A stretch of DNA of 64,000 nucleotides from Candidatus Brocadiia bacterium (GTDB lineage: Bacteria; Planctomycetota; Brocadiia; SM23-32). Location: assembly GCA_046538485.1 (NCBI GenBank), contig JBKHIT010000012.1:1-64000 (forward strand), written 5' to 3'. Within the stretch, counting starts at the first letter, position 1; each line of letters begins with the position of its first letter. Shown piece after piece: positions 9,086 through 35,351 of this stretch. The position numbers were made by a program, and so were the translations under genes. Under the pieces are notes generated by a model that was given only the letters and a program-made list of their open reading frames with translations, did not search any database and had not been told where the DNA came from.

Positions 9086-9282
9086 TCTTGGGAAAAATCC
9101 AGGAAAATGTATGGTTTCTTGCCCGCGCAGGAGGGCGATTGGCCCAACAAGCGAACAGCCACGCGCAACTTCCCCCAAAAATCTCTCGGCATCGTCCGCC
9201 AACCGGCGTCGGTGCGGATGCCTTTGGATTCGGCAATTTCTGTGAGTTTGGACGGGGTTTTCATGGGGGTTTCGATGCTGGA

Positions 9283-13547: not shown

Positions 13548-13702
13548 TTGTAATCTTTCTCAGCCCGCAAAGTTAGCTATTTAATAAAGATACAACACGC
13601 CCGGAGCTATAGTAAAGCCAAAACGATAGCGCCTTTTTTCCGGAACTATTTAACTGTTCATCCCCAGACCATTTGTGCTCCCTCCCAGAATTGTGGAGAA
13701 TA

Positions 13703-15319: not shown

Positions 15320-15374
15320 ACAGTTTCTTCCTTCCGAATTCCGTCTTACTGCTTCTGAAAAATTTTCGATTGGT

Positions 15375-18905: not shown

Positions 18906-20021
18906 TTACAGACGGGTTATGCTCACACTGCAGGTGTTTTCGGACCTGCCGGCGTAAGGGCAACTCCGACAGAACGACACCTCTTCCACGCGGTCTCGAA
19001 TCGTCCGCCTCACCCGCCGGGCACGCCCCCCTTTCCATATCTTTCGGAACGATGTTCCGGAACCGAACTGACCGTATGGCTCGCTCGCCTTAACATCCTG
19101 GCAGCAACTGACAACCGTCCCGTCGACCAGCATTGTTGGAAAGATGAAAGGTTTCTGGCAGATAAAATCGTTGCCAGGTTCCTGGCCCCCGTCTTCATAT
19201 CCGAAGGGATCGTAATCTGTCCCTTCAGGAACCATATTTTTATGAACCTTTTCGGCGTTCTCTACCGGTGATAGTGTTCTCAATGCGAGGAAATCAAAAG
19301 CGTTTTCGCGGGCAAAAGCTTCAAGCTCCGGCAATTCATGCTGGTTGTGTTTCATCACGATATAGCGCATGTGCAGATAGGGCCGTTCTTGCCCCGCCTC
19401 GTGCCGGGCCTCGGCCAATTCTTGCACCCCGGTAAGAATTTTCTCAACATCCGCGCCAACCCTGTAAACTGAATTTGTCTGATCCGTTAATCCGTCAAGC
19501 GCAACGATCAAATGTAGAGGAGGGTTTTCAAGCAACTGATCCCGCACCTCCGGCTCATAGAGCTTCATCCCGTTGGTAGAAATGACCGTATTGACCCCGT
19601 ACTGATGGGCTATTTCAACCGCTCGTCCAAATTCAGGGTGCAACAAGGGTTCGCCCCACGCCCACAGAAACACATCAAGAAGATAGGATCCGACTTCTCG
19701 CATAAGATTTTCAAAAAGGGTCAAATCCATCATTCCACGCTCTCGCTCAAATTCCCCCCTTCCCGCCGGGCAGACCGGACACCGGAGGTTGCAGACATTC
19801 GTCAGTTCCACCTGCATCCGCAACGGCCAGCTCCATGGATCCGAACGCCGCCACAGCAGGTTAAGCCCCGAAGCCATCACATTCAGGCGTTTCCGAAAAG
19901 ACATTTTCCGCACGTGCATCGGCATGAGATCAAACGTGTAATCATATCGTCCCTCCACCAATATGCTCCACGCCAGACGGGGAAAATCGAGCAGGTATTT
20001 CTTGCGAACACTTGATTTCAT
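18906..20021 (-). CDS. Radical SAM / SPASM-domain protein
   Basis: CNLRCPVC, WGEPLLH, STNG, C-terminal CQKP...DGTVVSCC...CRSC. Confidence 0.92.
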   Translation of the reverse strand: MKSSVRKKYLLDFPRLAWSILVEGRYDYTFDLMPMHVRKMSFRKRLNVMASGLNLLWRRSDPWSWPLRMQVELTNVCNLRCPVCPAGRGEFERERGMMDLTLFENLMREVGSYLLDVFLWAWGEPLLHPEFGRAVEIAHQYGVNTVISTNGMKLYEPEVRDQLLENPPLHLIVALDGLTDQTNSVYRVGADVEKILTGVQELAEARHEAGQERPYLHMRYIVMKHNQHELPELEAFARENAFDFLALRTLSPVENAEKVHKNMVPEGTDYDPFGYEDGGQEPGNDFICQKPFIFPTMLVDGTVVSCCQDVKASEPYGQFGSGTSFRKIWKGGRARRVRRTIRDRVEEVSFCRSCPYAGRSENTCSVSITRL

Positions 20022-20983
20022 AGAGTCTTAATCTCTCCCTGTTGTCCCCGGACAAATGCACCGATGATAAAACCGGCCGTATAACAAATCCAGTAGGTCA
20101 CCACCAGCGGCAGGAGCAAAAGAAAGTCAAGTCGGCTCTTCCACCCGGCGTGGCGCAGTCTCCAGCAACTGAGCACCAGCCGACAGGGAACGATCAGGGG
20201 AGCAGCCCAGAGGTGCCGGGCCAAAAAAGCGCCTCTGACTCCCCCGCTGCGGCGCACCATTCCTGAGCCCTTACCCAGATTCCACATGCGCCGAAAAGAA
20301 CCACAGAAAGTCGGGAGGTCAATGTGGGTAACCTTCGCCTCCGGTTCCAGCAGAACGTTCCGCCGTTCCGGGGGCAAATCGTTCATAAGATTCGTCTCTT
20401 CCGCACCGTATACACCCTCAGCGAACCGAGCTCCTGTTTCCCGGGTCAGGAGCCTTGAGACGCACATGTTGGAGCCCAGAGGGCCAGCAGCTTGCACCTG
20501 CCGACCGGGCAAAGCCCGCCCGATCTCCGCATAGACCATCGCGCGAGCCCATCCCTGCGCATACGGTCCCGGCACAGTCCAACCATTCACCAAATTCTCC
20601 TGTGCCTCAAAGCAGGGAGCCGTGAGGCGCCTCAACCAATCGCGGCCAGGAACACAATCTCCATCAATAAATACAAGATAGTCCCCCCGAGCCGCCATGA
20701 TACCCTCATTTCTTGCCCCGCCAGGTCCACGAGCAGACGTGCAATATACAAGCCGAACATCCGGGAAGAAACGGCGAACTATACCCGCAACGTCTCCCCG
20801 ACGCTCCGTCACAACCAGAACCTCCCGCGGCAGCTCGCACTTCTGGTCCCGAAGACCCTCCAGGCAACGGCGCACCAGCCCGGCTTGCTCCCCCACAGCC
20901 GGCACAATCACAGACACATCGGGACCGCCTTCGTCAACAACCCGGCTGACATCAGTGCAGGCGGTTTTTTGAAGTGGTGGCAT
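20018..20983 (-). CDS. Glycosyltransferase family 2 with a C-terminal hydrophobic tail
   Basis: VSVIVP, GPGGARNEG, VFIDGDC. Confidence 0.88.
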   Translation of the reverse strand: MPPLQKTACTDVSRVVDEGGPDVSVIVPAVGEQAGLVRRCLEGLRDQKCELPREVLVVTERRGDVAGIVRRFFPDVRLVYCTSARGPGGARNEGIMAARGDYLVFIDGDCVPGRDWLRRLTAPCFEAQENLVNGWTVPGPYAQGWARAMVYAEIGRALPGRQVQAAGPLGSNMCVSRLLTRETGARFAEGVYGAEETNLMNDLPPERRNVLLEPEAKVTHIDLPTFCGSFRRMWNLGKGSGMVRRSGGVRGAFLARHLWAAPLIVPCRLVLSCWRLRHAGWKSRLDFLLLLPLVVTYWICYTAGFIIGAFVRGQQGEIKTL

Positions 20984-21006: not shown

Positions 21007-22074
21007 TTATGACAGAGACATTTCGTACGGGAGGACTCTTTCCAAATCCGGTTCTTGGCCCAGCGCCACCCGTTCAATCATTTTTGTTACATCGATCATA
21101 TCCGAGAGGAGTTCATCACGGCGAGTTTGCCATCGGCCGGCGTCATAGTCACGCAGTATCTCCGTCCCCCGCTCGATCGCAGCCTGTTCTTGTTCCGGGG
21201 TGAAATTGCTCACCAAACCATACAGCTCCTCCTGTTCATCGGTATACCCCCTCCCGAGGGGGTCGACAAAAACGCCCGGGACCCCGAGCACCGCTGCCTC
21301 AGAGCACATCGTCGCACTCTCTCCGAACATCAGCGATGCAAAAGCCATCAAATCATGAATCCGGGAGACGGGCAAATCGAGTCTGTACTGCTCGAGGCCT
21401 TCGGGCAATGGTCCCTCGCAGGAGATGAAAACCGGCCCAAATTTGTTGAGTCTTTTGACCGCCTCGATTCTACCCTCCTCGGAAAACCCATGTCGTCCGA
21501 TATCGTGGGCGGCCCCCCAACCCACAAAACGGACCACGGAAAAGGTCTCCCCTTCGCCGAGACCGACCGCCTTCAGCACGGTAGAATCCGGAGTGAAATA
21601 CTCGGGGTGAAGATACGCGAGTTCGTGATACCCGCTGTAGCGTCGATGGCGCCACCGTATCGGTTTTCGGTAGCAGCGAGGCACGTGGACGCAGGTCGCG
21701 AAAGGATAGGCCAGCATATTCGAAAGCGTGGCATGTTCGGTATCATAAAAAACGTGCGTCGGAGTACCGGTCAGGAACCCGATCAGGCTGACGCAGGTCC
21801 CCGCAACAGCCAGTATCCTGTCGGGTTTGTAATCCCGCACAATCCCCAGCAGTCGCCACCAGCGATAAAGCAACTCACATCCCAGGTGGAAAAGACCGGC
21901 GCGCGCCCTTCCGAAAATCTCCACTTCCAGCTCATACTCTTCGGCGAGTTTCGCAAGTATATCCTTATCGCGCCCCGTGATTTTTACGCTGTGCCCTTTC
22001 CGGCGCAAATGGGCCACCGCATTCCGGAATATGTGCACATCAGCGGGATGCTGGAAATCGATCAGTATTTTCAC
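21007..22074 (-). CDS. DUF354 domain protein (GT-B-like)
   Basis: IDFQHPADVHIF, YDTEHA, YHELAYLHP, RFVGWGAAHD, ESATMCSEAAVLGVP. Confidence 0.88.
   Translation of the reverse strand: MKILIDFQHPADVHIFRNAVAHLRRKGHSVKITGRDKDILAKLAEEYELEVEIFGRARAGLFHLGCELLYRWWRLLGIVRDYKPDRILAVAGTCVSLIGFLTGTPTHVFYDTEHATLSNMLAYPFATCVHVPRCYRKPIRWRHRRYSGYHELAYLHPEYFTPDSTVLKAVGLGEGETFSVVRFVGWGAAHDIGRHGFSEEGRIEAVKRLNKFGPVFISCEGPLPEGLEQYRLDLPVSRIHDLMAFASLMFGESATMCSEAAVLGVPGVFVDPLGRGYTDEQEELYGLVSNFTPEQEQAAIERGTEILRDYDAGRWQTRRDELLSDMIDVTKMIERVALGQEPDLERVLPYEMSLS
21701..21801. repeat. 101-bp perfect direct repeat with 34413-34513
   Basis: aaaggatagg...gcaggtccc is identical in both DUF354 genes. Confidence 0.9.
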
Positions 22075-22341
22075 TGTCTTCTCTTCCCACAGCCAGAACG
22101 ATTCGAACTGCTGTTATTCATCAAAAAGACACCGCCGAGCGGCCGGTTCGCCTCACCCGCCGGGCTAAATCTCTCTTTTCATTTGTGATGATACAACAAA
22201 ACAGGGCAAAAGTCCTGAGTCTATCCCAAAATTTCCCCTTTGACATTCCTGAGAGATAGTGTCGGACAACTCGACTGAACCCGATTTTGCTACTGGCGCA
22301 TTATGCCTCTGTGACGCGCCCCGGCGGGCATCTTCTGCAGA

Positions 22342-23142
22342 TTACACTTCGACATCCGGAAGCCATGGGACCAGGCGGTGCATAACGGATGATAGCAAAG
22401 CGTTGAAGCTGATTCCGATCAATCCGGTCACGAGTATCCCCGCGTAAAGTTCCTCCATACGCATTGTCTCCCAGGCTCTCCATACCATCGCACCGAGCCC
22501 CCGGCGGGCATACACCAGTTCCACGGCTACGGTGACCACCAGCGCACTGTTAAAACCCAGCCGCGTTCCCGTCAATGTCATGGGCAGGCTACCGGGCCAC
22601 ACAACCCGGCGGAAGATTTTGAGGGGGCCGGCTCGGAAGTTCCTGGCGACTTCAAAATGTTCTCCGCTGATTTGTTTAACCCCGTTCATGCTATTTATCA
22701 GAACAGGGAAAAATGCGGCAAGGGCGATCACCGCCACTTTGGAGGTGTCGCCGATCCCTAAAAACGCCATGACAAGCGGCAAAACAGCAATTTTTGGAAT
22801 TGGGTGAACCAATCCGACGAGTGGATCAACCACGGACCGCAGCCGCCTGGACCAACCCATTCCCAATCCCAAACACAAACCCGTGACTCCGCCCAACCCA
22901 AACCCGATGAATAGCCGCGCCAAAGTAACACCAGCGTTCAATGGTAACTCCCCCGATCTCAATAGTCGCACGACACACGCGACGGTCACTGTTGGTGCAG
23001 GGAAAAAAGCCGGTGAGAGCAATTCAAGCCGAGCGGCACATTCCCACAGAACGCCCGTAACAAAAATTATGGCCGCCGCTATGAGTCCCCCTCTCCAGTG
23101 AAATTTGGTCTCTTTATCCGTTGTGGTTACTGGCGCGTCCAC
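22342..23142 (-). CDS. ABC transporter permease (NitT/TauT; SsuC/TauC-like)
   Basis: PIPKIAVLPL, FFPVLINSMNG, EAA-like EVARNFRA. Confidence 0.9.
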   Translation of the reverse strand: MDAPVTTTDKETKFHWRGGLIAAAIIFVTGVLWECAARLELLSPAFFPAPTVTVACVVRLLRSGELPLNAGVTLARLFIGFGLGGVTGLCLGLGMGWSRRLRSVVDPLVGLVHPIPKIAVLPLVMAFLGIGDTSKVAVIALAAFFPVLINSMNGVKQISGEHFEVARNFRAGPLKIFRRVVWPGSLPMTLTGTRLGFNSALVVTVAVELVYARRGLGAMVWRAWETMRMEELYAGILVTGLIGISFNALLSSVMHRLVPWLPDVEV

Positions 23143-23903
23143 GATGCCCTCCTCACTTCCTCTTCTATCTGCGACCATATATGATGAATCGTTCGGAGGG
23201 CTTCCGGAGCTTCAAGCACATCCGGTTCCCGCGGTCGTTCGAGGGGGATGGCAACTGTATCTCGAATTTGGGCCGGGTGGTCTGTCATAACAAGCACTCG
23301 ATCACCCAGCAGAACCGCTTCACGTATGTCATGGGTAACATACAACACAAGTTTTTGGTTTTCTTGCCAGATACGGAGCAGTTCCTCTTGCAGTATAATT
23401 TTGGTTTGAGCATCGAGCGAACCAAAAGGTTCATCCATAAGCAATACATCTGGTTCAGCTATAAAAGCACGGGCAATATTCGCCCTCTGTCTCATACCGA
23501 CAGAAAGCTCATGCGGAAGGTTTTCAGTGCAACGCTGCAATCCGAAACGGTTGAGGTACTGACGCGCTCGGCGCCGACGATCCTTTTTCCCCACTCCCCG
23601 GCATTCCAGAGGAAACGCAACGTTGTCCACCACCGTCATCCAGGGGTAAAGCGCATGTTGCTGGAAAACCAGCGCCGTTGTGGGATCCTGTTCGTATTGG
23701 TGGTTCCGGAACGAAATTGTTCCGGAGCTGGGAGATTCCAGCCCGGCTATGATTCTGAGCAGAGTTGTCTTACCGCAACCACTGGGACCGACCAGGCATA
23801 GAAACTCCGAGTCCTCGGCATCGAAGGTAACGTCATCAAGTGCCGGCACAGGACCATTCGCCGTATCAAATGTTTTGCTTAGATGTCGGCTTTCAAGAAA
23901 CAT
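23127..23903 (-). CDS. ABC transporter ATP-binding protein (SsuB/TauB-like)
   Basis: GPSGCGKT, LSVGMRQR, LLMDEPF, VTHD. Confidence 0.93.
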   Translation of the reverse strand: MFLESRHLSKTFDTANGPVPALDDVTFDAEDSEFLCLVGPSGCGKTTLLRIIAGLESPSSGTISFRNHQYEQDPTTALVFQQHALYPWMTVVDNVAFPLECRGVGKKDRRRRARQYLNRFGLQRCTENLPHELSVGMRQRANIARAFIAEPDVLLMDEPFGSLDAQTKIILQEELLRIWQENQKLVLYVTHDIREAVLLGDRVLVMTDHPAQIRDTVAIPLERPREPDVLEAPEALRTIHHIWSQIEEEVRRASWTRQ

Positions 23904-23945
23904 CTCGATTTTCTTTTCAAAAATGGTAGCGTTTTCCGTCGCCTT

Positions 23946-24983
23946 TTACTCGTGCTTTCGCCTCTTCTGCAATTCGGGGCTTTCCAATTTTTCCCGGGCA
24001 TATTCAACGAACTGAGTATCAAGGTATTCTTCAGATTTCAGCACCCGCGTGAGCAGTCCCCGCTTATGGGCCCAGGCTTGAAAATTTTGAATGCTCTCGA
24101 CATTGATACTGGCGTCGTTTCGGATAAAAGGCCAACCCGCTTCCTTCAAGAGTTCTTGGTCCAGCCCTGTAGCTCGTTCCAGGACCTTCAGGTTGCGTTT
24201 GGTTTTACCTTCGTTATACAGCCGAATGCCTTTCATATATGCAATCATGAAACGGCGCCCCAGTTCCGGTTCATCTCGAACTAATCGCGGCCCGAAAAGA
24301 ATCGTTGCATATTGGTAACCCGGCATAGTCTCGTAGTCTCTGCAGGCAATTATGGAGCCCCCGGCTCTCCGAGCTCGCGCGATCCAGGGCTCACCCGTCA
24401 TAAGGCCATCAATTTTTCGGCTCTTGAGAGCGTCGATGCCGGAGGAAGGATGTATGTAGACGAACCGCACATCATTCACGTTGACGCCCAATTTCTTCAG
24501 ACTTCGATGGGTAAACCAAATACCGTTCGTATCGGGAGGTGCGGAAATCCGCAACGGCTTGATTTTTTTCAGTTTTTCCCCCAGGTCTCCCCCGGCAAGA
24601 TCGTCCCGCACAAGCAATGCCAGATAGGGAAGGGCTTCAGTAGACATATTGCCTTTGTCAGCGACCAGACGGATCTCAAGATTACTATCAATGGCATTGA
24701 AGATTCCCAAACTGATACTGCCCGCCGCCACATCAAGTTTGCCCCGAGCCAGGGCGGGAAGTGCATGTGAGGATCTTTTGACGTGAACCAATTCCACCTC
24801 AAGACCTTCTTCCTCAAAAAAACCCTCTTCGCGAGCGATATGGATGGGTGCAAAGCTCAGATACGGCAAGGCAACAACCCTCAAGGTGGCTTTTTCTTGA
24901 CCTGAAGATTCCGGTTTTTTGCAACCTGCTAAAATTACGGTCAGCACAAGAATCCCCAGCACTATTTTTTTGGTAATCTTCAT
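23946..24983 (-). CDS. ABC substrate-binding lipoprotein (NMT1/SsuA/TauA-like)
   Basis: Lipobox ILAGC; APIHIAREEGFFEEEGLEVE. Confidence 0.9.
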   Translation of the reverse strand: MKITKKIVLGILVLTVILAGCKKPESSGQEKATLRVVALPYLSFAPIHIAREEGFFEEEGLEVELVHVKRSSHALPALARGKLDVAAGSISLGIFNAIDSNLEIRLVADKGNMSTEALPYLALLVRDDLAGGDLGEKLKKIKPLRISAPPDTNGIWFTHRSLKKLGVNVNDVRFVYIHPSSGIDALKSRKIDGLMTGEPWIARARRAGGSIIACRDYETMPGYQYATILFGPRLVRDEPELGRRFMIAYMKGIRLYNEGKTKRNLKVLERATGLDQELLKEAGWPFIRNDASINVESIQNFQAWAHKRGLLTRVLKSEEYLDTQFVEYAREKLESPELQKRRKHE

Positions 24984-25114
24984 CCTGCTTTCCTTTTCCA
25001 GATCGTTTGACGCTGCAATTTGTCGGTTATTCAGTCAGGCGTCGCTGTGCCCTCGAAAAAATCTCATCTAAAGACTCCTCTCCATTAGCATAACAGAATT
25101 GGACCGCATCCTAC

Positions 25115-26689
25115 CTACAGCGGCTTTCGCCGCAACGGGAGGAGTTTGCCAGCGGACGTCCACAATGGCTCCTGGCTACGCACTTCCAACGAATTGCCTC
25201 TTTCCCATATCTGCGCCGCGTACCCCGCCCCTGAATTCCCTTTTCGTAAGCCGTCCAGCAGGACCTGCCGCATCGCTCTTTCATCTTCGATCACTACACG
25301 TGGATGCACCAGAAGAACAAGTTTGGTCAACCCCTGCCCATCTTCCTCCTCCATAAGCTGGTAGTCCAATGCCGAGCCTCCGAACCGAGCGGGAAGTTCA
25401 GACTGAAGCAACTCGGCGAGATCGGTATGCACAAGCGAGACTCCCTCCCCTGTCAGTTTCGCGAAGCTACGAATCCGCCGAAGATGGAGGTCGAAACCTA
25501 TTCGCCCAAGCGGACATCCGCAGTCGCGCCGTTCGACTATCGCATAATCATCAAGGCCCGTATTGAGCATCAACTTGCTGGCCGCCGGAGATAAAGTCGT
25601 CAGATATAACGCATCAACCGTTCCATCGATCCCCTCGACCGACCTTTTCCGTTGAACGAGAGCGAACGAATCGAGCGCCACATGAACATCGCTGCCATCC
25701 AGCGGCTCTGCGCATCCCGAACCGATGCCACCCGCTTCGGTGGTGGCATAATTCGGTATCCATCGGGCGCCTGTTTCATGCATCGTGCTCACTTTCTCCG
25801 GCGTTGGGGGCTCCCCGCCCCCGTGAAAAGTCACCCCTTCGAGGCTGAGTCCCTGCTCGGCCGCACCGAGGCAAGCACGAACCGCCATACTTACACCAGC
25901 ACTTACCACACAAGGACCCTCATCTTCCAAAGTGCTTTTGATCCATTTCAGCAAAGGCCGGGGGCTGGACAGCGAACTCAAGCGAGGTACCGGTATCTTC
26001 CCACCAAACAGACGGCTTACAAGTAGAACGTAAAAGAGAATACAACGCCTTTTGAGTGTGCTCTCGCTTAAATCAATTGGCACGAACCACTCACGCGCGG
26101 GATTGCCCAACACCACTTGCCTGAGCACGTTGAAGAAACCGGACGACGCCGGGAGGGTGGGCCGCCACGCCGCATAGGGCTGATCAATTATTCCATGGGA
26201 CTCACATACCAGTATGCGCCATGCGCATTCCCAATAGATCTGTTCCAGGTCCACAGCCACGCGCTTGCCCGCACCGGTGGATCCCCCCGTCCTGGCCGCA
26301 TAACATTGAGTGAGATATGGGTTGTCGAAATCGTTCGCTGTCACATCGACCTTCACCCCGTTGCGCACAATCGGTTTGTAACCCTTGAATTCTTCAAAAT
26401 CGATGTAAACCCCCCTCTCGTAGAGCTCCTCCAGCGCATTCTCCAGTCCCTGCTTCAGCACTAAAGAACGCAACCTGGAAAAATCAATCCCGGCCGCACG
26501 CAACAGCGGCAGATAGGGACTCCGCGAATAGCCGAATATACCCTTCCTGGCGAGACGAAGAAAGAGTTCCTCTCGGTGTGCCAGTCTCCATCTGACCGCC
26601 TTCTGTGCCTGCGAAACGGTTATACGTTTGCGAAGGAAAGGACCCAGACCGAAACCGAAACGGCCGTACATAAGTATGCGCTTCAACAC
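25115..26689 (-). CDS. Divergent PaaK/CapK-like adenylate-forming protein
   Basis: TGGSTG loop, GGGEP, YATTE, DDY...CGC..GR motifs; GTG start with AGAGGA RBS. Confidence 0.7.
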   Translation of the reverse strand: MLKRILMYGRFGFGLGPFLRKRITVSQAQKAVRWRLAHREELFLRLARKGIFGYSRSPYLPLLRAAGIDFSRLRSLVLKQGLENALEELYERGVYIDFEEFKGYKPIVRNGVKVDVTANDFDNPYLTQCYAARTGGSTGAGKRVAVDLEQIYWECAWRILVCESHGIIDQPYAAWRPTLPASSGFFNVLRQVVLGNPAREWFVPIDLSESTLKRRCILFYVLLVSRLFGGKIPVPRLSSLSSPRPLLKWIKSTLEDEGPCVVSAGVSMAVRACLGAAEQGLSLEGVTFHGGGEPPTPEKVSTMHETGARWIPNYATTEAGGIGSGCAEPLDGSDVHVALDSFALVQRKRSVEGIDGTVDALYLTTLSPAASKLMLNTGLDDYAIVERRDCGCPLGRIGFDLHLRRIRSFAKLTGEGVSLVHTDLAELLQSELPARFGGSALDYQLMEEEDGQGLTKLVLLVHPRVVIEDERAMRQVLLDGLRKGNSGAGYAAQIWERGNSLEVRSQEPLWTSAGKLLPLRRKPL

Positions 26690-26868
26690 ATCAATCCTCT
26701 GAAAATCTCGTCGGGACCCGTTACCGTGCCGTTTCCTCCGTGACCTCCCGCATGAAGCGAAACATGCAAGAAAACTCTCATTATACAGCAGGATACCGGG
26801 ACCTCCAACCGTTTGCTGGCATATTGCCATTCGGAGGGTTTTAAAACCGCCTCAACACATCACGCCTG

Positions 26869-26896
26869 TTGACAAATGACCGTGTAAGGTTATCCT
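26869..26896 (+). promoter_or_regulatory. Putative sigma70 promoter for the ligase operon
   Basis: TTGACA-N16-TATCCT ~47 bp upstream of ATG 26943. Confidence 0.5.
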
Positions 26897-26942
26897 CTTT
26901 TTTGAGCATACAAATTTGAGTCAGTTAATCAGGTGGCTTGAC

Positions 26943-28241
26943 ATGAAACCTGCACATCTATGGGCCGCCAGAGCTCTCATTGGCCTATCACCACCATCGC
27001 CTGAAAAGATACATCAGATCCAGGAACGCGCCCTTCGCCAACTCGTCCAACATGCCTATCATCGTGTGCCTTTCTACCGCCGGCTGTTCGACAACCACGG
27101 TATATCCCCAAAGGATATCAGGAAACTTGAGGACCTTCCTCGCCTGCCAATCTCGTCACGGAAAAAACTCCAAAACACAAGCCTCTCTGATCGAATCGCG
27201 GATGGTATCGACCCTGCCAGTCTCCGTCGCGTAAAGACCAGTGGTTCAACCGGTCAGCCGCTGACGATCTGCAAAACGTCCATAGAAAAGCGGCTCTTCT
27301 GGTGTTACTGGAATCGGGCCTTTCACCATTTCGGCGGATCTCTCACCGATCGGCGTACAGGTATTTCAGTGCCCCATCACCATCACCAACGCAACCTGCT
27401 GAAACCTCTGATAAAGGCGATGGGTATAATGCGGAGCGAACAGATCAATTGCTGCAAGCCCACAAAAGAAATTATGGCCCAGCTCCGCCGCTCCGAATTC
27501 GACATCCTGGTCGGGATGCCGGGTATGATCTATCACCTGGCCGATCGTACCACGAAAAAAGATCGACAGGCCATCCGGCCGAAATATGTGGAGCTCGGCG
27601 GTGATACGCTCACCAAACCCATGCGGCAGCGTATCAGCAAGACCTTCGGCGCCCCGGTCCGGCTCACTTACGGGAGCCATGAACTATCTCTTATCGCCTG
27701 GGAATGCACCGAGACGGGCAAGATGCATACCTGCGACGATGCCTTAATCGTGGAAATCCTCAAAGACGGGCGTCCCGCAAAACCCGGTGAAACGGGCGAA
27801 TTAGTCGCTACGAACCTGATCTCCTACGCGATGCCGTTTATCCGCTACCGCCAGGGTGATCTCGTGACCCAGGGTTCCCCCAAATGCCCCTGCGGCGCGC
27901 CCTTTGGAACAATCAAGAAGGTGAAAGGCCGGGTTGTCGACTACATCAAGCTGCCCGGAGGGCAGATGCTGCACCCTTTTACCATAATCGGACCGGTCGT
28001 ATACGAGGCAGGGTGGGTGGCCAAATACCAAATCGTGCAACACAGCCTCAACTCTGTGTCAATCTTGATTCGGCCACTGCGACAACCACGAAAAAACGAA
28101 TTAGAAACCCTTGAAAGAGCTGTCAGAAAAGCTTTGCAAAACAAACTGCGTTTCAAAATTAAACTCGTCGACAAAATTGCGCAAATCCCGGGCGAAAAAT
28201 ACAGGCTTGTTCGCTCGGAGTTGACCGATGGCTCAACATAA
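26943..28241 (+). CDS. Phenylacetate-CoA ligase / CapK family protein
   Basis: AYHRVPFY, TSGSTGQP, YGSHE, MPFIRYRQGD, CPCG. Confidence 0.88.
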   Translation: MKPAHLWAARALIGLSPPSPEKIHQIQERALRQLVQHAYHRVPFYRRLFDNHGISPKDIRKLEDLPRLPISSRKKLQNTSLSDRIADGIDPASLRRVKTSGSTGQPLTICKTSIEKRLFWCYWNRAFHHFGGSLTDRRTGISVPHHHHQRNLLKPLIKAMGIMRSEQINCCKPTKEIMAQLRRSEFDILVGMPGMIYHLADRTTKKDRQAIRPKYVELGGDTLTKPMRQRISKTFGAPVRLTYGSHELSLIAWECTETGKMHTCDDALIVEILKDGRPAKPGETGELVATNLISYAMPFIRYRQGDLVTQGSPKCPCGAPFGTIKKVKGRVVDYIKLPGGQMLHPFTIIGPVVYEAGWVAKYQIVQHSLNSVSILIRPLRQPRKNELETLERAVRKALQNKLRFKIKLVDKIAQIPGEKYRLVRSELTDGST

Positions 28242-28309
28242 AAAACAAGAAATCCCCCTTTGAAACCGGTGGTAAAAAGCTGGCAACGGACGAGACATCC
28301 AAAGAGACG

Positions 28310-29671
28310 ATGCGAGTGCATAGACTCCCCCTCATCGGGCGGATACTGCGCTCCCCTCCTCCGTCCATCCTCATTCATGACCTCTACCCGCTCCCCAGTA
28401 TTCGGCACGGTTCTTCTCCGGCCGCCGGGTGGCAAAGTTTTGATCAAAGGGCTCTTCTACTGGCACGTGAAGGTGATATTATCTGTCTGGGAACGCATCC
28501 CGATCCCCATTTTCTCGACTACCTGAAGGAATTCGATTTTGGGCCGGACAACGAAAACATTTTGGTGCTCAACAAGGGGACGCATCAGAAAACCGGTAAA
28601 GATCTTGCCGCAGAACTTCTCAGCAACCCCGGATGCCTGGAACGCCTCTTCAGGTGCCTCCAGGGAACCACAAAGGCCGAAATCTGCCCGTATTTTCCTG
28701 CGGAATCCCACTTCGAACTCGCTCAATTGTTGCGGGACACAGGGGGCATTTCGGCCTCAGTTCAGGCCGCTCGTCCAGAAGTTGCGCGCACTGCCGCCGA
28801 CAAAAGCGTTGTCAGAAAGGCTGCCCGAGATATGCAAGTTCCCCTTGCACCAGGGGCAATAGTGCGCACATCGCCGGAGAAAATTGGTCCCCTCAACGAA
28901 GCTGTGCATGAAATGGCCCGCCAGACCGGCAGGGTCCTGCTGCGGGGCACAATCGGTGCTGGAGGGAGTACGACTTTCCTTCTCGAAGAGAACATCCCCG
29001 ATCTGCAAAAAGTGATCTCAAAAGCCAAACAGACCCCTGATGCATGGCTCGTCGACGTGCACTATAAAATTCGCTGTTCCCCCAACATAGAATTCTTCCT
29101 CAATCAGAAATCGGGAAAAGCCACCTGCGTGGGCGTGACCGATCAACGTTTCGATGACAAACTGAACCACCTCGGCAACGCATGGCCGTCCCGAGCGCAC
29201 ACTATGCCTGATATGGTAAAAGCAGGCGCTCGCATGGCTGACTGGTATCTGAATATGGGCGGTAAAGGTTTAGTGGGGATGGATTTTGTGGAATATGAGA
29301 ACCCCAAAACCGGACAAATACAGTTCTTGCTGGCCGAATTGAACCCGCGGATCAACGCAGCAACGTATCCACTGGCAATCGTCGAGCGCCTGAACCACCA
29401 TCGAAAGAACCAAGGTCTCCACCCCATAAAAACCTTTTTCTCGGGACACATCGCAACCGGATGCAAAGATTTCAACGATCTGAGAAAGCGTATCGAAACG
29501 GTTCTTTACAGGCCGAATAGCCAGAGCGGTCTCTTTCCTTACAACACAGGTGCCCTCTTTGACGGGCACTTCGGGGCGGTTATATGCGCCACTGACAGGA
29601 AAGAAGGTGAAGCGATCCTGAAAGAAACGGTCCAACGCGCGAAACCCATGTCAGAAAATCAGGAGCTTTGA
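28310..29671 (+). CDS. ATP-grasp ligase (pre-ATP-grasp / PGM1-like amide ligase)
   Basis: RALLLAREGD N-terminal domain, DKSVVR, GAGG, SPNIE, GMDFV, AELNPRINAATYP. Confidence 0.75.
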   Translation: MRVHRLPLIGRILRSPPPSILIHDLYPLPSIRHGSSPAAGWQSFDQRALLLAREGDIICLGTHPDPHFLDYLKEFDFGPDNENILVLNKGTHQKTGKDLAAELLSNPGCLERLFRCLQGTTKAEICPYFPAESHFELAQLLRDTGGISASVQAARPEVARTAADKSVVRKAARDMQVPLAPGAIVRTSPEKIGPLNEAVHEMARQTGRVLLRGTIGAGGSTTFLLEENIPDLQKVISKAKQTPDAWLVDVHYKIRCSPNIEFFLNQKSGKATCVGVTDQRFDDKLNHLGNAWPSRAHTMPDMVKAGARMADWYLNMGGKGLVGMDFVEYENPKTGQIQFLLAELNPRINAATYPLAIVERLNHHRKNQGLHPIKTFFSGHIATGCKDFNDLRKRIETVLYRPNSQSGLFPYNTGALFDGHFGAVICATDRKEGEAILKETVQRAKPMSENQEL

Positions 29672-29672
29672 T

Positions 29673-30983
29673 ATGAAATCAGCACATTTGTTCGCCGCAA
29701 GGGCTCTTATGGGCCTGCCGCCCCCATCACCTGAAAAAATACGTCAGATCCAGGAACGCGCCCTGCGTCAGCTCGTCCAGCATGCTTACCACCGTGTGCC
29801 CTTCTACCGCCAGCTGTTCGACAATCACGGTGTCTCGCCGAAGAATATCAGAAGTCTTGAGGACCTCCATCGTCTGCCTGTTATCTCACGGAAAGACCTG
29901 CAGCAAACAGACATGCCCAGCAGGATCGCGGAAGGCGTCGACATTGAAAAACTCTTTATCGAAAGAACAAGCGGTTCAAGCGGGGAACCTTTGACGGTTC
30001 TCAATACGTATCTGGAGCGTCGTCTCTTTTTCGGATACTATACCCGCGTTCGTCGCCATTTCGGTTTAAGAGCAACCGATTCTCTTGTCTCCATTACAAT
30101 ACCTCCGTGCGTGCCAGATGTATGCCTGCCAAAACGCCTGGCCCACTGGCTGAATCTGTATCGGAACAAAAGCATCAACGCCCTCCAACCGACCCGAGAT
30201 ATCCTGCGAATTATGCGCAAGCATCAAATCGATATCTTAGCGGGGATGCCAACCGCGCTTCACGAACTGGCCATTCATGCCACAAGGGAGGATCAGCAGG
30301 CGATCCGTCCGAAATGCATCCAATCAGGCGGTGATACGCTGACACCTTCCGTGCAAAAACGCTTGCGGGAAGTCTTCCGCGCACCGGTCCGGCAGGCCTA
30401 CGGAAGTCATGAATTCAAGCTCATTGCCTGGGAATGCACCGAGACCGGCGAGATGCACACCTGCGATGACGCTCTGATTGTAGAAATCCTAAAAGACGGG
30501 CGCCCCGCAAAACCCGGTGAAACGGGTGAATTGGTCGCGACGAACCTGATTTCCTATGCAATGCCCTTCATCCGCTACCGTCTGGGTGATCTCGTGACCC
30601 AGGGTTCCCCCAAATGCTCCTGCGGCGCCCCGTTTGGAACCCTCCGGAAGGTGGAAGGGCGGGCGATGGACTACCTTAAACTCCCTGGAGGGCAGAAACT
30701 CCATCCCTACGTCGTGCTCTCACCGATCCTCTACGAAACCGATTGGGTCGCGAAATACCAGATCGTCCAGCACAGCCTGAAATCGGCCACCATGTTGATC
30801 CAACCGCTACGCGAACCGTCCGAGGCCGAAGTAAGAAAAAGCGAAACACGGGTCAGGAAGGCCCTGGCGGGAGCTCTGGATTTCAAAATAAAAATCGTGG
30901 GCAACATACCGCCGAATCCAGGCGGTAAACACCGAATCCTGCGCTTCGAACCGGACAATAAGCCCAAAAGTGCCAGCCAGTAA
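29673..30983 (+). CDS. Phenylacetate-CoA ligase / CapK family protein (paralog of 26943-28241)
   Basis: TSGSSGEP, YGSHE, MPFIRYRLGD; N- and C-terminal blocks nearly identical to the paralog. Confidence 0.88.
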   Translation: MKSAHLFAARALMGLPPPSPEKIRQIQERALRQLVQHAYHRVPFYRQLFDNHGVSPKNIRSLEDLHRLPVISRKDLQQTDMPSRIAEGVDIEKLFIERTSGSSGEPLTVLNTYLERRLFFGYYTRVRRHFGLRATDSLVSITIPPCVPDVCLPKRLAHWLNLYRNKSINALQPTRDILRIMRKHQIDILAGMPTALHELAIHATREDQQAIRPKCIQSGGDTLTPSVQKRLREVFRAPVRQAYGSHEFKLIAWECTETGEMHTCDDALIVEILKDGRPAKPGETGELVATNLISYAMPFIRYRLGDLVTQGSPKCSCGAPFGTLRKVEGRAMDYLKLPGGQKLHPYVVLSPILYETDWVAKYQIVQHSLKSATMLIQPLREPSEAEVRKSETRVRKALAGALDFKIKIVGNIPPNPGGKHRILRFEPDNKPKSASQ

Positions 30984-31040
30984 AGGCCATAGCTGACTTC
31001 ACTGGATCTATGTCCGCAACATTGAAAATCTCCGCCTTTT

Positions 31041-31682
31041 TTATTTTTTCTCATCGTGCATTTTGCGCCGCACTCCCTTGAAACACAACACACGCCAGAG
31101 GACCAACTTGGCTGTTTTCTCGTAGCCCGCCTTCACCATAGCAGCCCTTGCGGATTGGGTATCAGCCAGAACGACCGACCAGATCCTCCCGTAACCAGCG
31201 TCTTTTGCCCTTTTCATTGCCTCGGCCGCAATCGCCGAACCAATTCCGCGTCCACGATATTGCGGATGGACAAACACGCCCGTCACCCAGGCATCGGTGG
31301 ACTCAACATCCAGGGCTTTTTGTAATACAGGATCCCGTTTCGGCAGGTGGTCGATGACGCAGGCAAACGCCACAATATTACCCTGTCCCACGGCCACCAG
31401 AGGGATGCCCTCTCCCCCGGTTAGCCGGTGAAGTGTGGCAGAGCTGCGCCAAAACTTATGGGCGGACAACATCCGGTGCAAAAACTCAACATCTTCCGGC
31501 ACACCTTTGCGAAATTCAAAGCCTCCGGGCAGGGGACGATTTGGAATCGGATCATGCAGAGAGCGCATCATTAGAATCATCCGTTCCCGCCGGTAGATAA
31601 AATGCCAGATAAAAGATTTTATGAAGGCAAGAAGTCCATTGACCTTCAGATAGTCGGCGATTTCATTGAATTCATACCTCAT
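31041..31682 (-). CDS. GNAT family N-acetyltransferase
   Basis: VFVHPQYRGRGIG motif A. Confidence 0.88.
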   Translation of the reverse strand: MRYEFNEIADYLKVNGLLAFIKSFIWHFIYRRERMILMMRSLHDPIPNRPLPGGFEFRKGVPEDVEFLHRMLSAHKFWRSSATLHRLTGGEGIPLVAVGQGNIVAFACVIDHLPKRDPVLQKALDVESTDAWVTGVFVHPQYRGRGIGSAIAAEAMKRAKDAGYGRIWSVVLADTQSARAAMVKAGYEKTAKLVLWRVLCFKGVRRKMHDEKK

Positions 31683-31793
31683 AATTCAGCATCACTCACA
31701 GGAAACATATCTACATATTGAGATATCGAGTCGGCCCCCACTCTAACTGAACCCACTCTGGTTAGCAGAGAAACTGGATCAGAATATCCACTT

Positions 31794-33650
31794 CTACTCG
31801 GTCCGGGATGGGCCATAGAGCTTATGCCAGCGACCGAATGTGATCAGGCAGCGCAGCGGAGCGACATGATTCTTTTTCCGGCTCATATGTTCTTCCACCA
31901 TTTGCTTTGCTCGATCAATATCAATGATGTCAGGCGGAAACGATTCCTCGTCCGCCAGCATCTCCGTCAACAATCGCCGAAACGCAGGGGTGCGGAGCTC
32001 TTCGGACCTGTCCGGCCACCCCATATTGCGCCACGTCACAGGAATCAGTCCCAGTTTTCTCCGCAGGCTCAAAGAAGCTTCCTCCACCGCCCTGAACATC
32101 CAACCTATGAACGCCGGAACGTCCGGTCGAAACCCCGTGTTAGAATCGGGTATGGCAAACAACCGTCCGTCGAGCAATCGGAGGGCCTGTCGCAGCAGAC
32201 GACCATCCATTCTCTGACTCAACGGCAGTGCAAACGCAAACTCCCATAAGTCGCTATCAAAGCTCAAGGCCCCGTATTCAACGGCCTTGCGCACGCTGCG
32301 CAAACCTGAAAGAGTCCGTCCGTAAGCCGCCAATCCACTCACATGCTCCACCAGGTGATAGGGATCATCCGTGCCGGCATCTTTTATCTGCTCACCGATG
32401 CCTGCCAGAATTGCGTCGTAATAACGCCCACGAAACGGTTCACGAAATAAAAGCCACGGCCGGGCACCGAAGGTGCTCTTCAGACTCCCGTGAAGGATCT
32501 GCTCTTCAATGTTGCGCCGACTGAATGTCGCGCGAGCCGGTAACGGAATCCGCAATCCCCTGGGACGGACAAAAGCCCCCCAATAATAGCCCCTAAAAAG
32601 CGGGTCCATCGCATCTTCGTTCAATACAAGGTCGCAATCTTCCGAAATAATGTCGAGAAAACCCGGGAAATGGCAGGTGTCAAAACGTTCCATCCCGCCC
32701 GTGAGTTCAATCGCTTCATCCAGAATCGAAGAATAGTAATCGGCCGGGCGGCGGATAAACGTATGCTCCCCCCCCCCACCCGCCGCCACGCGCCGGGCCA
32801 GTCGGACTTCGCGGCAGTTCCAGTCGGCCACAGTGTAAGCCGAAAGAGGCGTCTGGCAGGCGGCCACAACCAATCGGGAATCCAGACCACCACTTAACAA
32901 CAATCCCGTGTTCCGCCACCGAGCGGTAATCCTTTCAGCCGCGCGGCGAAGGAGATGAGCCAGTTTCTCCGCCCGATCTGTCTCCGACTGTTCGTAAGAC
33001 CCGTATGGAATTCGCCAGTACTTCCGGAGGTTCAGATGCCCGCCCCTGAACTCCAGGACAGACGCCGGCTTCATACACCGTATTTCTTTCAAAAGGGTGT
33101 GGCGAAACTGCACGTGCTGGAATGTCAACAACTGGGCAAGAGCTGTCATGTCCAATTGCCGATTCTCCAGCGCGGGAGATACCGCAAGCGCATTAAACCG
33201 TGAACCAAAAAGCAAACCAGCGGAGGTTTCAGCATAAAACATGGGACGCGACAGTATCCGATCCGTTACAAGCAAGAAACTTCGCGCGGCCGAATCGTAT
33301 ATGGCTATTGAGTAGGAACCGTTCAACGACGGAAAACAGCCCTCCCCTTCCTGTTCGTAAAGGTGTAAAAGGTGTTCGGCATCATTTTTCTCCTGGCAAT
33401 CCGCAGTTTTATCCGGATCTTCGGGCAACAGATAACCATCGAGGTATACACATAAGGCGCCGTTTTCGCTTCGAGCTGGCTGGAGGCCATTGTCAGGTTT
33501 CCCGTGATGAAAATGCAGTACTCCAACTCCGGCTTCTTCGGACCTGTCACATTGAAAGCTGCAACTTTCAGCAATATGGTTCTCCATTGTGTCAAGAACC
33601 CGCCTGGTCGTTTGCGAGTCAGCGCCGGCTATACCCATCAGTTCGGCCAT
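31794..33650 (-). CDS. Asparagine synthetase B-like amide ligase lacking the N-terminal catalytic Cys
   Basis: LNGSY, TDRILSRPMFY, LLSGGLDSR; starts MAELMGIAG rather than MCGI. Confidence 0.85.
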   Translation of the reverse strand: MAELMGIAGADSQTTRRVLDTMENHIAESCSFQCDRSEEAGVGVLHFHHGKPDNGLQPARSENGALCVYLDGYLLPEDPDKTADCQEKNDAEHLLHLYEQEGEGCFPSLNGSYSIAIYDSAARSFLLVTDRILSRPMFYAETSAGLLFGSRFNALAVSPALENRQLDMTALAQLLTFQHVQFRHTLLKEIRCMKPASVLEFRGGHLNLRKYWRIPYGSYEQSETDRAEKLAHLLRRAAERITARWRNTGLLLSGGLDSRLVVAACQTPLSAYTVADWNCREVRLARRVAAGGGGEHTFIRRPADYYSSILDEAIELTGGMERFDTCHFPGFLDIISEDCDLVLNEDAMDPLFRGYYWGAFVRPRGLRIPLPARATFSRRNIEEQILHGSLKSTFGARPWLLFREPFRGRYYDAILAGIGEQIKDAGTDDPYHLVEHVSGLAAYGRTLSGLRSVRKAVEYGALSFDSDLWEFAFALPLSQRMDGRLLRQALRLLDGRLFAIPDSNTGFRPDVPAFIGWMFRAVEEASLSLRRKLGLIPVTWRNMGWPDRSEELRTPAFRRLLTEMLADEESFPPDIIDIDRAKQMVEEHMSRKKNHVAPLRCLITFGRWHKLYGPSRTE

Positions 33651-33736
33651 CGTCGGTCCTCTTTCTCAGTGTCTCCAAAAGCAAATAAACCCATCTTTTG
33701 CTCGCAAACGATAAAACCTGCCCGCCGTATCGTCCG

Positions 33737-34786
33737 TCAGCAACTGGACATCTTGTCTGCTAAAGTTTTCCCCGTTGCCACCTTTTCAATCATAGCCGTC
33801 ACGTCAATCTTCTCGGACAAAAGGTTCTCGCGCCGGTCCGTGTAGGTCCGAGAGCCCACACACCTGAGAGCCTCCTTCGCCGCATACAACGCATCGTCAA
33901 ACTGAGGAGGACGAAAATTATACACAAGCCCATATGAATCTTCCTGCTCATGCAAATAGCCCATCTGAAGGGGATTGACATATACTGCCGGCACCCCCAG
34001 TACTGCCGCCTCAGAACTCATGGTCCCACTTTCGCCAAAAACAAGACTGGAAAAAGCAATTACATCGTGAATCTGTGAAAGGGCCGTCGGCAAAAGCAGA
34101 GGTTTGAAATCGGGGGGGACCTCACCTTCGATGGATAGAAACACCCGGGCTTCCTTACGAAGCTCCTCGATCGCTCTGCGTTTCTGCGAATCTCTAAGGC
34201 CCTCATACCCGGCGTCGTGGGCAGCTCCCCAGCTCACAAACCGCAAAAGAACGTACTGTTCGTCCTTCCCGACATTCAGATCGTTCAACACAGAGGGATC
34301 GGGCGTAAAATAATTGGGATGCAAATAGGCCAAAGTGTGATAGCCGGGATAGCATCTGTACCGCCAGCGAATGGGTTTATTATAACATTCAGGAATGTGA
34401 ATACACGTCGCAAAAGGATAGGCCAGCATATTCGAAAGCGTGGCATGTTCGGTATCATAAAAAACGTGCGTCGGAGTACCGGTCAGGAACCCGATCAGGC
34501 TGACGCAGGTCCCTGCTCCAGCCAGCATCCGGTCCGGTTTCCAGCGGCGCACAATTTTCCACAACTTCCACCAGCGATACAATAATTCGCCTCCCAGATT
34601 GAACAACCCCGGCTTGGCGCGTCCGAAAATTTCCACTTGCAAATCATATTCTTCCGCAAGCATGACAAGTATATCCTTGTCACGTCCCGTAAGTTTCACG
34701 GCGTGGCCCTGCCCCCGTAATCGTTCTATCACATTGCGGAAAAAGTGGACATGAGCCGGATGTTGGAAGTCGATGAGTACTTTCAT
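33737..34786 (-). CDS. DUF354 domain protein (paralog)
   Basis: IDFQHPAHVHFF, YDTEHA, ESGTMSSEAAVLGVP. Confidence 0.88.
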   Translation of the reverse strand: MKVLIDFQHPAHVHFFRNVIERLRGQGHAVKLTGRDKDILVMLAEEYDLQVEIFGRAKPGLFNLGGELLYRWWKLWKIVRRWKPDRMLAGAGTCVSLIGFLTGTPTHVFYDTEHATLSNMLAYPFATCIHIPECYNKPIRWRYRCYPGYHTLAYLHPNYFTPDPSVLNDLNVGKDEQYVLLRFVSWGAAHDAGYEGLRDSQKRRAIEELRKEARVFLSIEGEVPPDFKPLLLPTALSQIHDVIAFSSLVFGESGTMSSEAAVLGVPAVYVNPLQMGYLHEQEDSYGLVYNFRPPQFDDALYAAKEALRCVGSRTYTDRRENLLSEKIDVTAMIEKVATGKTLADKMSSC

Positions 34787-34808: not shown

Positions 34809-35351
34809 TCAATTTTTGCTGGACGCTTGTGTTTTTTTGCCCGCAATAAATTCACGCGCCGCGTCAGTACTGTAGGCTCGGAATCCGCTTGCAGCATCCT
34901 CCACATATATACCCGCGCAACGGCTTACAACCCAAGAGCCAAAACGTTGCAATCGTTTTTTAATCCCTGGAAAATGGCCAATATCCTCGATCGGCCGCGC
35001 ACCGATCACAATCTCTGCCTCCCTGTCAAGAATCGGTTGCACAAGCTTCGGAATATCCTGACCGCAGTACTGGTTATCCCCGTCAGTGTTCACAATGATG
35101 CCAGCACCTGCCACAATGCAAGCTTCCAGCCCCATGGCCCACGCATTGGCAAGCCCTTTGTTAATCCCGAGATCAAGAATATGGTCAACCCCCTGCTCCC
35201 GGGCAACCTCGAGGGTGGAATCAGTACTCCCATCGTTAATCACCAGTGTCTCAATTTCATCAATCCCCGGGATTTTCTCTGGCAAGTCCGCAAAAGTTAC
35301 CGGAAGGGTTTTCTCCTCGTTATAACAGGGGATCTGTATGATCAGTTTCAT
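34809..35351 (-). pseudogene. GT2 (DPM1-like) glycosyltransferase, C-terminally truncated
   Basis: KLIIQIPCYNEE, INDGSTD, NTDGDNQY, SGFRAYS, then a stop at 180 aa. Confidence 0.65.

Follow-up and report, generated by a model that had tools for sequence, protein, structure and literature searches.

Bases 21,007 to 34,786 of a 64,000-nucleotide stretch of DNA from a Candidatus Brocadiia bacterium (the window; contig JBKHIT010000012.1 of assembly GCA_046538485.1) encode several predicted ATP-dependent ligases and an ATP-binding cassette (ABC) importer, within a surface-glycan locus. At the centre lies a divergent PaaK-fold enzyme, here named X, whose gene stands beside those of the importer. Judged by homology and gene order, X and the importer form a functional core conserved far beyond this genome. 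We give an even chance to the reading that X adenylates an organic anion scavenged from outside, which becomes a glycan substituent that the other ligases of the region would extend or amidate. The genes of the putative core are:

25115–26689, minus strand: X, divergent PaaK-fold adenylate-forming enzyme and conserved partner of the importer (assigned by fold and synteny)
23946–24983, minus strand: lipoprotein solute-binding protein (SBP) of the NMT1/SsuA kind (PF13379 NMT1_2 and PF09084 NMT1)
23127–23903, minus strand: ABC importer ATPase (PF00005 ABC_tran)
22342–23178, minus strand: ABC importer permease of the NitT/TauT kind (PF00528 BPD_transp_1)

Window proteins, taken as open reading frames (ORFs) of at least 150 aa, were scanned with Pfam and NCBIfam, and X matched no model even at E ≤ 10, PF00501 (AMP-binding) included. 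A profile built from 25 homologs found five weak matches in the PDB, all of them PaaK-type ligases (best E 7e-4). The AlphaFold2 (AF2) model of X, with a predicted local distance difference test score (pLDDT) of 87, was matched by Foldseek to BT_0428 and PaaK1/2 at E 6e-16 to 1e-13 and probability 1.0; all top matches were ANL enzymes, with template-modelling (TM) scores by target of 0.55–0.67, and the closest folds were those of the acyl-/aryl-CoA ligases BT_0428, PaaK1/2 and 2-hydroxyisobutyryl-CoA ligase. The model thus predicts a two-domain ANL fold on a separate branch of the PaaK fold. The original prediction had counted three PaaK/CapK-like enzymes here: two of them are recognisable by sequence, whereas the third, X, escapes Pfam and NCBIfam, and its assignment proved right by fold because the AlphaFold model matches BT_0428 and PaaK1/2, in line with the profile matches.

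With PaaK-type ligases (BT_0428, 4r1l/4r1m; PaaK1/2, 2y27/2y4o) the three window enzymes share the two-domain adenylate-forming fold, PaaK-like 1 and 2 by sequence and X by fold. X differs in having some 90 additional N-terminal residues and no AMP-binding match in Pfam, and all three fall short of the PaaK equivalog model TIGR02155 (cut-off 646 bits), with 106 bits for PaaK-like 1, 92 for PaaK-like 2 and no match for X. The company they keep also differs, as the partners here are importers and glycan genes and no paa catabolic genes were found. The X family alignment conserves G136, T138, G139, A140, T142 and R143, and, near the C-terminus, an invariant G514 and a nearly invariant K515; the Gly/Thr-rich loop and K515, read by eye, may be the ANL P-loop and catalytic lysine.

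The family is large, with 1031 matches among 8000 scored candidates and, as cluster representatives at 50% identity, 2072 proteins at E ≤ 1e-3 and 701 at E ≤ 1e-30. Among the 120 matches listed, none carried a Pfam domain, and those with a name were called "hypothetical protein". Relatives of X number 505 in the species-genome collection and at least 523 in metagenome contigs. Closer to the source genome, a set of 40 related genomes (24 of the same family and 16 others of the class, with tblastn on fetched loci) contained X homologs in 6 of the 24 and none of the 16.

The neighbourhood of X was examined in 77 genome loci drawn from the 505 relatives, spanning Brocadiia, Chloroflexota, Gemmatimonadota, Acidobacteriota, Binatia, Rokubacteria, Eisenbacteria, several delta-proteobacterial groups and others. 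All ORFs of these loci were clustered by homology and the recurrent clusters named via Pfam; 33 neighbour clusters were present in at least five loci, and 19 of these were Pfam-scanned. An importer SBP gene stands beside X in 50 of the 77 loci. It is of the NMT1 type in 38, usually with the ATPase and permease genes next, and of the TctC type in 12 (TctA in 9/77 and TctB in 7/77); the two types never occur together in one locus (0/77). Wherever the X/SBP spacing could be measured, the SBP gene is the immediate downstream neighbour of X and shares its strand. A metagenome replicate of 78 loci, with adjacency scored by gene order, had an SBP gene in 46, and it was the next gene after X in 39 of the 58 loci evaluable by having at least 800 bp after X (37 NMT1-type, 2 TctC-type). 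The X-bearing genomes of the same family keep the order X, SBP, ATPase, permease; in relatives the permease is 54–55% identical, and the ATPase, 58–62% identical, always comes after the binding-protein gene. That importer and ligase belong together, and are not neighbours by accident, is supported by this recurrence across many phyla inside glycan operons.

Eighteen genome loci lacked both importer and glycan clusters, and ten of these were scanned individually. Five of the ten show a transporter or binding-protein gene near X: an NMT1 gene upstream (L040), ABC genes and an NMT1 gene with three X paralogs (L083), a TAXI-type tripartite ATP-independent periplasmic (TRAP) carrier (L042 and L037), and a major facilitator superfamily (MFS) gene directly downstream (L052). 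Upstream of X in L043 there is solely an ABC ATPase-domain gene. As X keeps an adjacent importer while the importer class changes, it would most simply work on the imported compound.

Duplications follow the same partnership. In L021, L031 and L053 the X and SBP genes are duplicated as a unit, the ATPase and permease remaining single. The two pairs of L021 are old (47% and 44% identity), and the best X match and best SBP match of each pair share one foreign locus; the duplicate in L053 is recent. Six of the 77 genome loci and seven of the 78 metagenome loci have a gene for a TonB-dependent receptor within the importer or adjoining it.

An 857-aa protein, P0146, carries X and an NMT1 binding-protein domain in one frame and was considered as a true fusion, then rejected: Met, signal peptide and lipobox Cys of the SBP are all retained at the junction, which points to a read-through or to loss of a stop codon as the probable cause. 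No X–SBP fusion was found among longer proteins. Some 700 bp upstream of an X–SBP pair in another locus (L014 of genome G018, 2312–6070, plus strand) lies a gene whose 1252-aa product carries a hydrazine-synthase alpha middle domain.

The link to glycan export is seen in the loci that carry a Wzx-type flippase gene (21 of 77). The source genome holds three such genes in 5.2 Mb, so that a 21-kb interval would contain one by chance in roughly 1% of cases, at the base rate of this one genome. Of 46 loci, 11 have a Wzx-type gene downstream of the last importer gene, at no more than 3 kb and in the same orientation, and the gap is at most 50 bp in seven. Four loci read fully with Pfam (L030, L049, L059 and L025) show one-strand runs, as in the order X, SBP, methyltransferase, ATPase, permease, Wzx, methyltransferase, and in L025 the genes from X through Wzx share one strand. 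Recurrent companions of X are GT2 and GT4 glycosyltransferases, polysaccharide deacetylases, AlkP-family proteins, methyltransferases, a PRK07208-type flavoprotein and PMT_2 proteins. Divergent PaaK-like genes are found in the vicinity of X in five of the 77 genome loci and seven of the 78 metagenome loci, and further ATP-grasp genes in L049 and L012, so multi-ligase sets around X are not unique to the window. Loci of this kind unite an importer, a predicted activating enzyme and glycan genes in one operon, the arrangement that marks lic1-like scavenge-and-decorate systems.

Two of these loci (L030, 12393–14548; L025, 10341–12505) also have, together near X, a gene for a pyridoxal-phosphate enzyme resembling threonine or cysteate synthase (a weak match of about 37 bits) and another resembling homocitrate or isopropylmalate synthase, whose products might make the acid in-house.

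The importer itself has a binding protein, a BPD_transp_1 permease and an ABC ATPase in one operon, as ABC importers generally do, and the SBP has a lipoprotein signal peptide with a lipobox (..LAGC, read by eye). The original prediction described it as of the TauABC/SsuABC type, which holds at the level of the superfamily and fails at that of the equivalog. In NCBIfam the permease scores 147 bits as SaoP, 134 as TauC and 106 as SsuC, each under its cut-off (342 for TauC and 347 for SsuC); the TauB and SsuB scores are 206 bits (cut-off 357) and 163 bits (cut-off 395), and the SBP scores 62 bits against the SsuA family TIGR01728 (cut-off 163.5). It shares with TauABC and SsuABC the importer architecture and binding-protein superfamily; with scores far under the equivalog cut-offs, no TauD or SsuD partner found and a ligase for a neighbour, it otherwise differs from them. 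Among solved structures, the best match of the SBP family profile is an uncharacterised protein from Bordetella (3qsl, 3e-23), with SsuA (4e-13), TauA (8e-13), CmpA (8e-12) and an NrtC domain about equally far.

A clue to the cargo comes from the importers that take the place of the ABC type. Carboxylates are the cargo of tripartite tricarboxylate transporters (TTT; TctCAB) and of TAXI carriers, and they are also what ANL enzymes adenylate. The replacement of the ABC importer by TctCAB or TAXI-TRAP favours an imported acid, over an imported amine, as the substrate that X would adenylate. Several loose clues would be compatible with a sulfo-carboxylate, for example cysteate or sulfolactate: the NitT/TauT SBP, the TTT carriers, the weakly matched threonine-/cysteate-synthase-like gene and the sulfotransferase-rich locus.

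Catabolic genes for sulfonates and phenylacetate were also sought. The whole assembly (143 contigs, 88% complete) had no match to TauD (PF02668) or SsuD (PF00296), and none to PaaA/PaaC (PF05138), a search whose control had no match in E. coli and whose sensitivity is uncertain. No paa catabolic, SsuD or TauD gene was found among the window ORFs, in agreement with what had been noted at the outset about paa and ssuD. Thiolase, hydratase, dehydrogenase and ring-reducing genes likewise did not recur next to X among the 33 clusters, 19 of them Pfam-scanned.

From these elements a route can be proposed, in which the ligand, the adenylated partner, the acceptor and the final product are those we infer. 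On the outer side of the cytoplasmic membrane the lipoprotein SBP would capture a small organic anion, in all likelihood a carboxylic acid, perhaps with a sulfo or amino group, and the permease and ATPase would import it. In the cytoplasm X would adenylate the carboxyl group and pass the acyl moiety either to coenzyme A (CoA) or straight to a sugar precursor, at an amine or a hydroxyl, so that the scavenged compound would end as a substituent on the Wzx-flipped glycan. PaaK-like 1 and 2, the ATP-grasp enzyme, the GNAT protein, and DUF354 with the Cys-less AsnB homolog may lengthen, N-acylate or amidate this substituent. A wider version is put forward tentatively and at somewhat below even probability, namely that bacteria of at least 12 phyla import an organic acid from the environment by whatever class of carrier they possess (ABC, TTT, TAXI-TRAP or MFS, sometimes with a TonB receptor), activate it with X and display it on a Wzx-exported polysaccharide.

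Several observations weigh against the decoration reading. PaaK-fold enzymes are mostly catabolic CoA ligases. An NMT1- or TctC-type SBP gene is missing from 27 of the 77 genome loci, the SBP is not next after X in 19 of the 58 evaluable metagenome loci, and a Pfam scan of L062, L082, L081 and L038 revealed no transporter near X. Kin among the loci are not independent, and the locus counts overstate the support accordingly. The SBP profile singles out no ligand, binders of sulfonate, taurine, bicarbonate and nitrate being equidistant. On the glycan side, 38 of 77 genome loci have no recurrent glycan cluster, and just 15 of 78 metagenome loci have one, although most of the metagenome contigs are too short for a judgement; the Wzx base rate comes from a single genome; and within the window the Wzx gene is 14 kb from the importer. 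In two delta-proteobacterial loci (L042, 5834–16355; L037, 1624–9426) a TAXI-TRAP carrier and an Amidohydro_2 gene precede X and a molybdopterin oxidoreductase gene follows it, a context that looks metabolic and not glycan-related. These last two loci, the many without a glycan cluster, and the resemblance of X to acyl- and aryl-CoA ligases would suit a plainer explanation, in which X and its importer take up an acid and convert it to a CoA thioester for assimilation or fermentation, merely standing among glycan genes, with the other ligases unrelated. We consider this unlikely, as a Wzx gene begins within 50 bp of the last importer gene in the seven loci noted above, and genes for methyltransferases, deacetylases, glycosyltransferases and AlkP-family proteins alternate with those of the unit, all in one orientation. 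The catabolic searches point the same way, since neither the recurrent neighbours of X nor this genome, for the paa, SsuD and TauD families, yielded the enzymes such a pathway would use.

A decidedly unlikely alternative, closer to the original prediction, has the importer bring in taurine or another amino-sulfonate and a PaaK-like enzyme adenylate a uronic acid of the glycan and amide-link the amine to it, as proposed for CapK. CapK of the Staphylococcus aureus cap1 locus is PaaK-like, which would give both systems such an enzyme in a capsule or glycan locus. A polymer with an amide-linked small sulfonate is documented there, as passages of PMC12043029 describe taurine joined to GalNAcA in the type 1 capsule (CP1). 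The SBP, permease and ATPase of the window do belong to the superfamily that includes TauABC and SsuABC; its three sulfotransferase genes suggest that anionic sulfo groups are wanted on the glycan; and with no TauD- or SsuD-type gene found, a sulfonate taken up by the cell would escape desulfonation by these enzymes. However, the TauC, TauB, SsuC, SsuB and SsuA-family scores lie far under their cut-offs, TauA is no closer to the SBP than SsuA or CmpA, and X is served by TctC-type carriers in 12 genome and 2 evaluable metagenome loci and by TAXI-TRAP in two, all carboxylate carriers. We know of no dedicated importer described for cap1, whereas here the importer is the conserved partner and the TctC/TAXI exchange points to an imported acid. 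The staphylococcal precedent is real for the polymer, yet it is not a close model for this locus, and the taurine/CapK analogy is weak. It is very unlikely, finally, that the ligases make a diffusible amide or peptide natural product, such as a siderophore-like chelator, which the importer takes up again. In its favour, the nearest solved relatives belong to natural-product pathways (PGM1 and BesA for the ATP-grasp enzyme, NatL2 and AjiA1 for the PaaK fold, 7ylz for the AsnB-like protein), and TonB-dependent receptors, typical of siderophore uptake, accompany some of the importers. Yet the PaaK-like, ATP-grasp and GNAT genes are not conserved with X, and the ATP-grasp gene is rare; no nonribosomal peptide synthetase, polyketide synthase, carrier-protein or dedicated small-molecule exporter gene was seen in the window, and the conserved neighbours of X are flippases and glycosyltransferases.

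Searches of the 40 related genomes and tblastn on their loci separate the region into five modules, so that it is a mosaic set in a Wzx/Wzy/Wzz-type surface-glycan locus rich in sulfotransferases. Module M2 is X with its SBP, ATPase and permease; the genes of the other four, with those flanking the region, are:

18906–20021, minus strand: radical SAM/SPASM enzyme, M1 (PF04055 and PF13186)
20018–20983, minus strand: GT2 glycosyltransferase, MftF-like, M1 (PF00535; MftF 62 bits, cut-off 280)
21007–22074, minus strand: DUF354-A, GT-B-like protein, M1 (PF04007, 46 bits; gathering cut-off 22)
26943–28241, plus strand: PaaK-like ligase 1, M3 (the ORF opens with TTG at 26916; the paralog alignment starts at Met 26943)
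28310–29671, plus strand: putative ATP-grasp amide/peptide ligase of the PGM1/BesA type, M3 (PF18604 Pre-ATP-grasp, 49 bits; cut-off 27.5)
29673–30983, plus strand: PaaK-like ligase 2, M3 (PF00501, 42 bits; starts 2 bp after the ATP-grasp stop)
31041–31682, minus strand: GNAT acyltransferase, M4 (PF00583, 50 bits)
31794–33650, minus strand: Asn-synthetase-like amide synthetase without the glutaminase Cys, M5 (PF13537 GATase_7 and PF00733 Asn_synthase)
33737–34786, minus strand: DUF354-B, paired with the AsnB-like gene as in relatives, M5 (PF04007, 59 bits; gathering cut-off 22)
34809–35351, minus strand: truncated GT2 of the polyprenyl-phosphate sugar synthase type, 180 aa, M5 (PF00535; AglJ and PpgS-like, below cut-off)

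The eleven genes named in the original prediction, two DUF354 genes at the flanks among them, are all real and lie at or near their predicted positions by ORFs, profiles and folds; profiles and models likewise uphold its count of five ATP-dependent carboxyl-activating enzymes from three folds. What the comparison with relatives does not sustain is the cassette as one conserved pathway. None of the relatives' loci was found to carry PaaK-like 1, the ATP-grasp ligase, PaaK-like 2 or GNAT (M3 and M4) beside X, and their distribution indicates lineage-specific genes. The five-ligase cassette is a lineage-specific pile-up around the conserved core of X and its importer and not a single ancient pathway; re-centred in this manner, from a five-ligase pathway to a conserved ligase–importer unit with lineage-specific additions, the earlier proposal is partly supported.

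PaaK-like 1 and 2 are 62% identical and match solved PaaK ligases (PDB 4r1l at E 5e-26); against the DVU_1553-family ligase model (cut-off 300 bits) they score 153 and 151 bits, respectively. The ATP-grasp family profile matches BesA (8yi6, 6e-11, residues 91–446), 8ynd (3e-10) and PGM1 (7.5e-4), and the AF2 model (pLDDT 87.7) matches 8ynd in Foldseek (E 1e-23, TM 0.72–0.78). Domain and modelled fold together thus identify a PGM1/BesA-type ATP-grasp enzyme, and the call of an ATP-grasp ligase stands through PF18604 and the fold match to peptide ligases. Relative to PGM1 and BesA it has the same Pre-ATP-grasp domain and ATP-grasp fold (TM 0.7–0.78), whereas identity is 16–19% and the window enzyme lies between two PaaK-like ligases in a glycan locus. 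It is rare, being found in 4 of 24 family genomes, with two weak matches in 400 genomes of the phylum and 17 close homologs in a word-indexed search. A PaaK-like gene followed by the ATP-grasp gene was seen in one further case, on a G018 contig of 2.8 kb; at its other locations the ATP-grasp gene has no PaaK-like companion, and in relatives it does not travel with the importer.

The neighbourhood of X homologs gave the opposite outcome, as the importer recurs and is joined in five relatives' loci by DUF354 and the Cys-less AsnB homolog. The order DUF354 then AsnB recurs in L011, L012, L014, L016 and L116, and the pair stands beside the X–importer unit in five loci of five metagenome-assembled genomes, all of them Brocadiia relatives. 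DUF354 is present in all 6 X-bearing genomes of the family compared with 4 of the 18 without X. DUF354-A and DUF354-B, which are 62% identical, are the sole DUF354 genes found in the 88%-complete genome. No PDB sequence matched DUF354, and the Atlas search yielded only DUF354 clusters. Passages of PMC4520260 predict a glycosyltransferase fold with few conserved catalytic residues for this family. The AsnB-like protein scores 109 bits against TIGR01536 (cut-off 267), and its best solved relative is 7ylz, named a hydroxyamidotransferase (2.6e-15); weak NCBIfam matches are to a lasso cyclase and an XrtA/PEP-CTERM amidotransferase. Its N-terminus and those of three relatives (MAELMGIAG, MSDLFGVCG, MAELLGIAG and MSDVMGICG) have no Cys after the start Met, as had been predicted, and the PP-loop SGGLDS is invariant in all four. 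Known Asn-synthetase-like enzymes without the glutaminase Cys include beta-lactam synthetase and the lasso-peptide cyclases. The window protein resembles them in its intact PP-loop synthetase domain and missing N-terminal Cys, with 7ylz nearest among solved structures, and differs in being constantly paired with DUF354 in this lineage.

In M1 the MftF-like GT2 gene sits between the radical SAM gene, which it overlaps by 4 bp, and DUF354-A, 24 bp away. The radical SAM gene adjoins a DUF354 gene in G014 (L115, 50% identical over its full length) and in G002 (L113), identity being 50–51%. The homolog of the truncated GT2 in G006 (L112, 2098–3105) is 75% identical and 335 aa long, with one extra gene of about 340 aa before DUF354, and the window gene looks like the remnant of a deletion of about 1.5 kb. 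A flippase-like LPG_synthase_TM gene lies beside DUF354 and AsnB in L011 (14983–16608) and L012 (17936–19561), a DPM1-like GT2 gene flanks the pair at its opposite end in L011, and a PMT-like GT-C gene lies beside it in L016. These neighbours recall the three-part logic of periplasmic glycosylation, with a polyprenyl-phosphate sugar synthase, a flippase and a GT-C enzyme.

The closest precedents for the proposed economy are the lic1 system, in which choline is taken up and placed as phosphocholine on lipooligosaccharide (LOS) or teichoic acid, and the uptake of sialic acid for LOS sialylation. They share with the proposed system a dedicated importer, an activating enzyme and glycan genes, which would bring an exogenous compound to the cell surface; they differ in using a kinase and cytidylyltransferase or a CMP-sialate synthetase, where ANL-fold adenylation and other importer classes are predicted here. 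By analogy, the proposed system would combine known glycan decoration by ATP-dependent ligases with lic1-like scavenging, a chemistry that we infer. Searches of the literature turned up no account of a PaaK-like ligase linked to an importer within glycan loci, which is not proof that none exists. Host-associated bacteria, with their use of choline and sialic acid, have so far been the main source of examples of scavenge-and-decorate logic. Should the reading hold, environmental bacteria of many phyla would put scavenged small molecules on their surface glycans, and a large enzyme family not covered by Pfam or NCBIfam models would gain a function and a testable substrate route. The SBP provides a handle, as the compound that it binds is the candidate substrate of X.

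By ORF listing and Pfam and NCBIfam profile scans, the glycan locus occupies bases 95–35351, extends to the contig start, and includes GT4 glycosyltransferases, Wzy, Wzx, Wzz, three sulfotransferases, three PMT-like GT-C proteins and the region described above. Among its genes are:

1358–2317, 2482–3168 and 8225–9202, minus strand: three sulfotransferase-domain genes, inside the Wzx/Wzy locus
6764–8140: Wzx flippase gene
10978–12669, minus strand: 563-aa H-type lectin-domain protein, its gene flanked by those for Wzz and the PMT-like proteins
12666–16922: three PMT-like GT-C proteins

The three sulfotransferase-domain genes imply a sulfated surface glycan. A sulfotransferase gene is also found upstream of X in L040. 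An AddB-like nuclease gene begins at 35675, and the genes past that point have no relation to glycans. Well beyond the glycan locus lies a fragment of an IS110-family transposase (PF02371; 53191–53856, minus strand).

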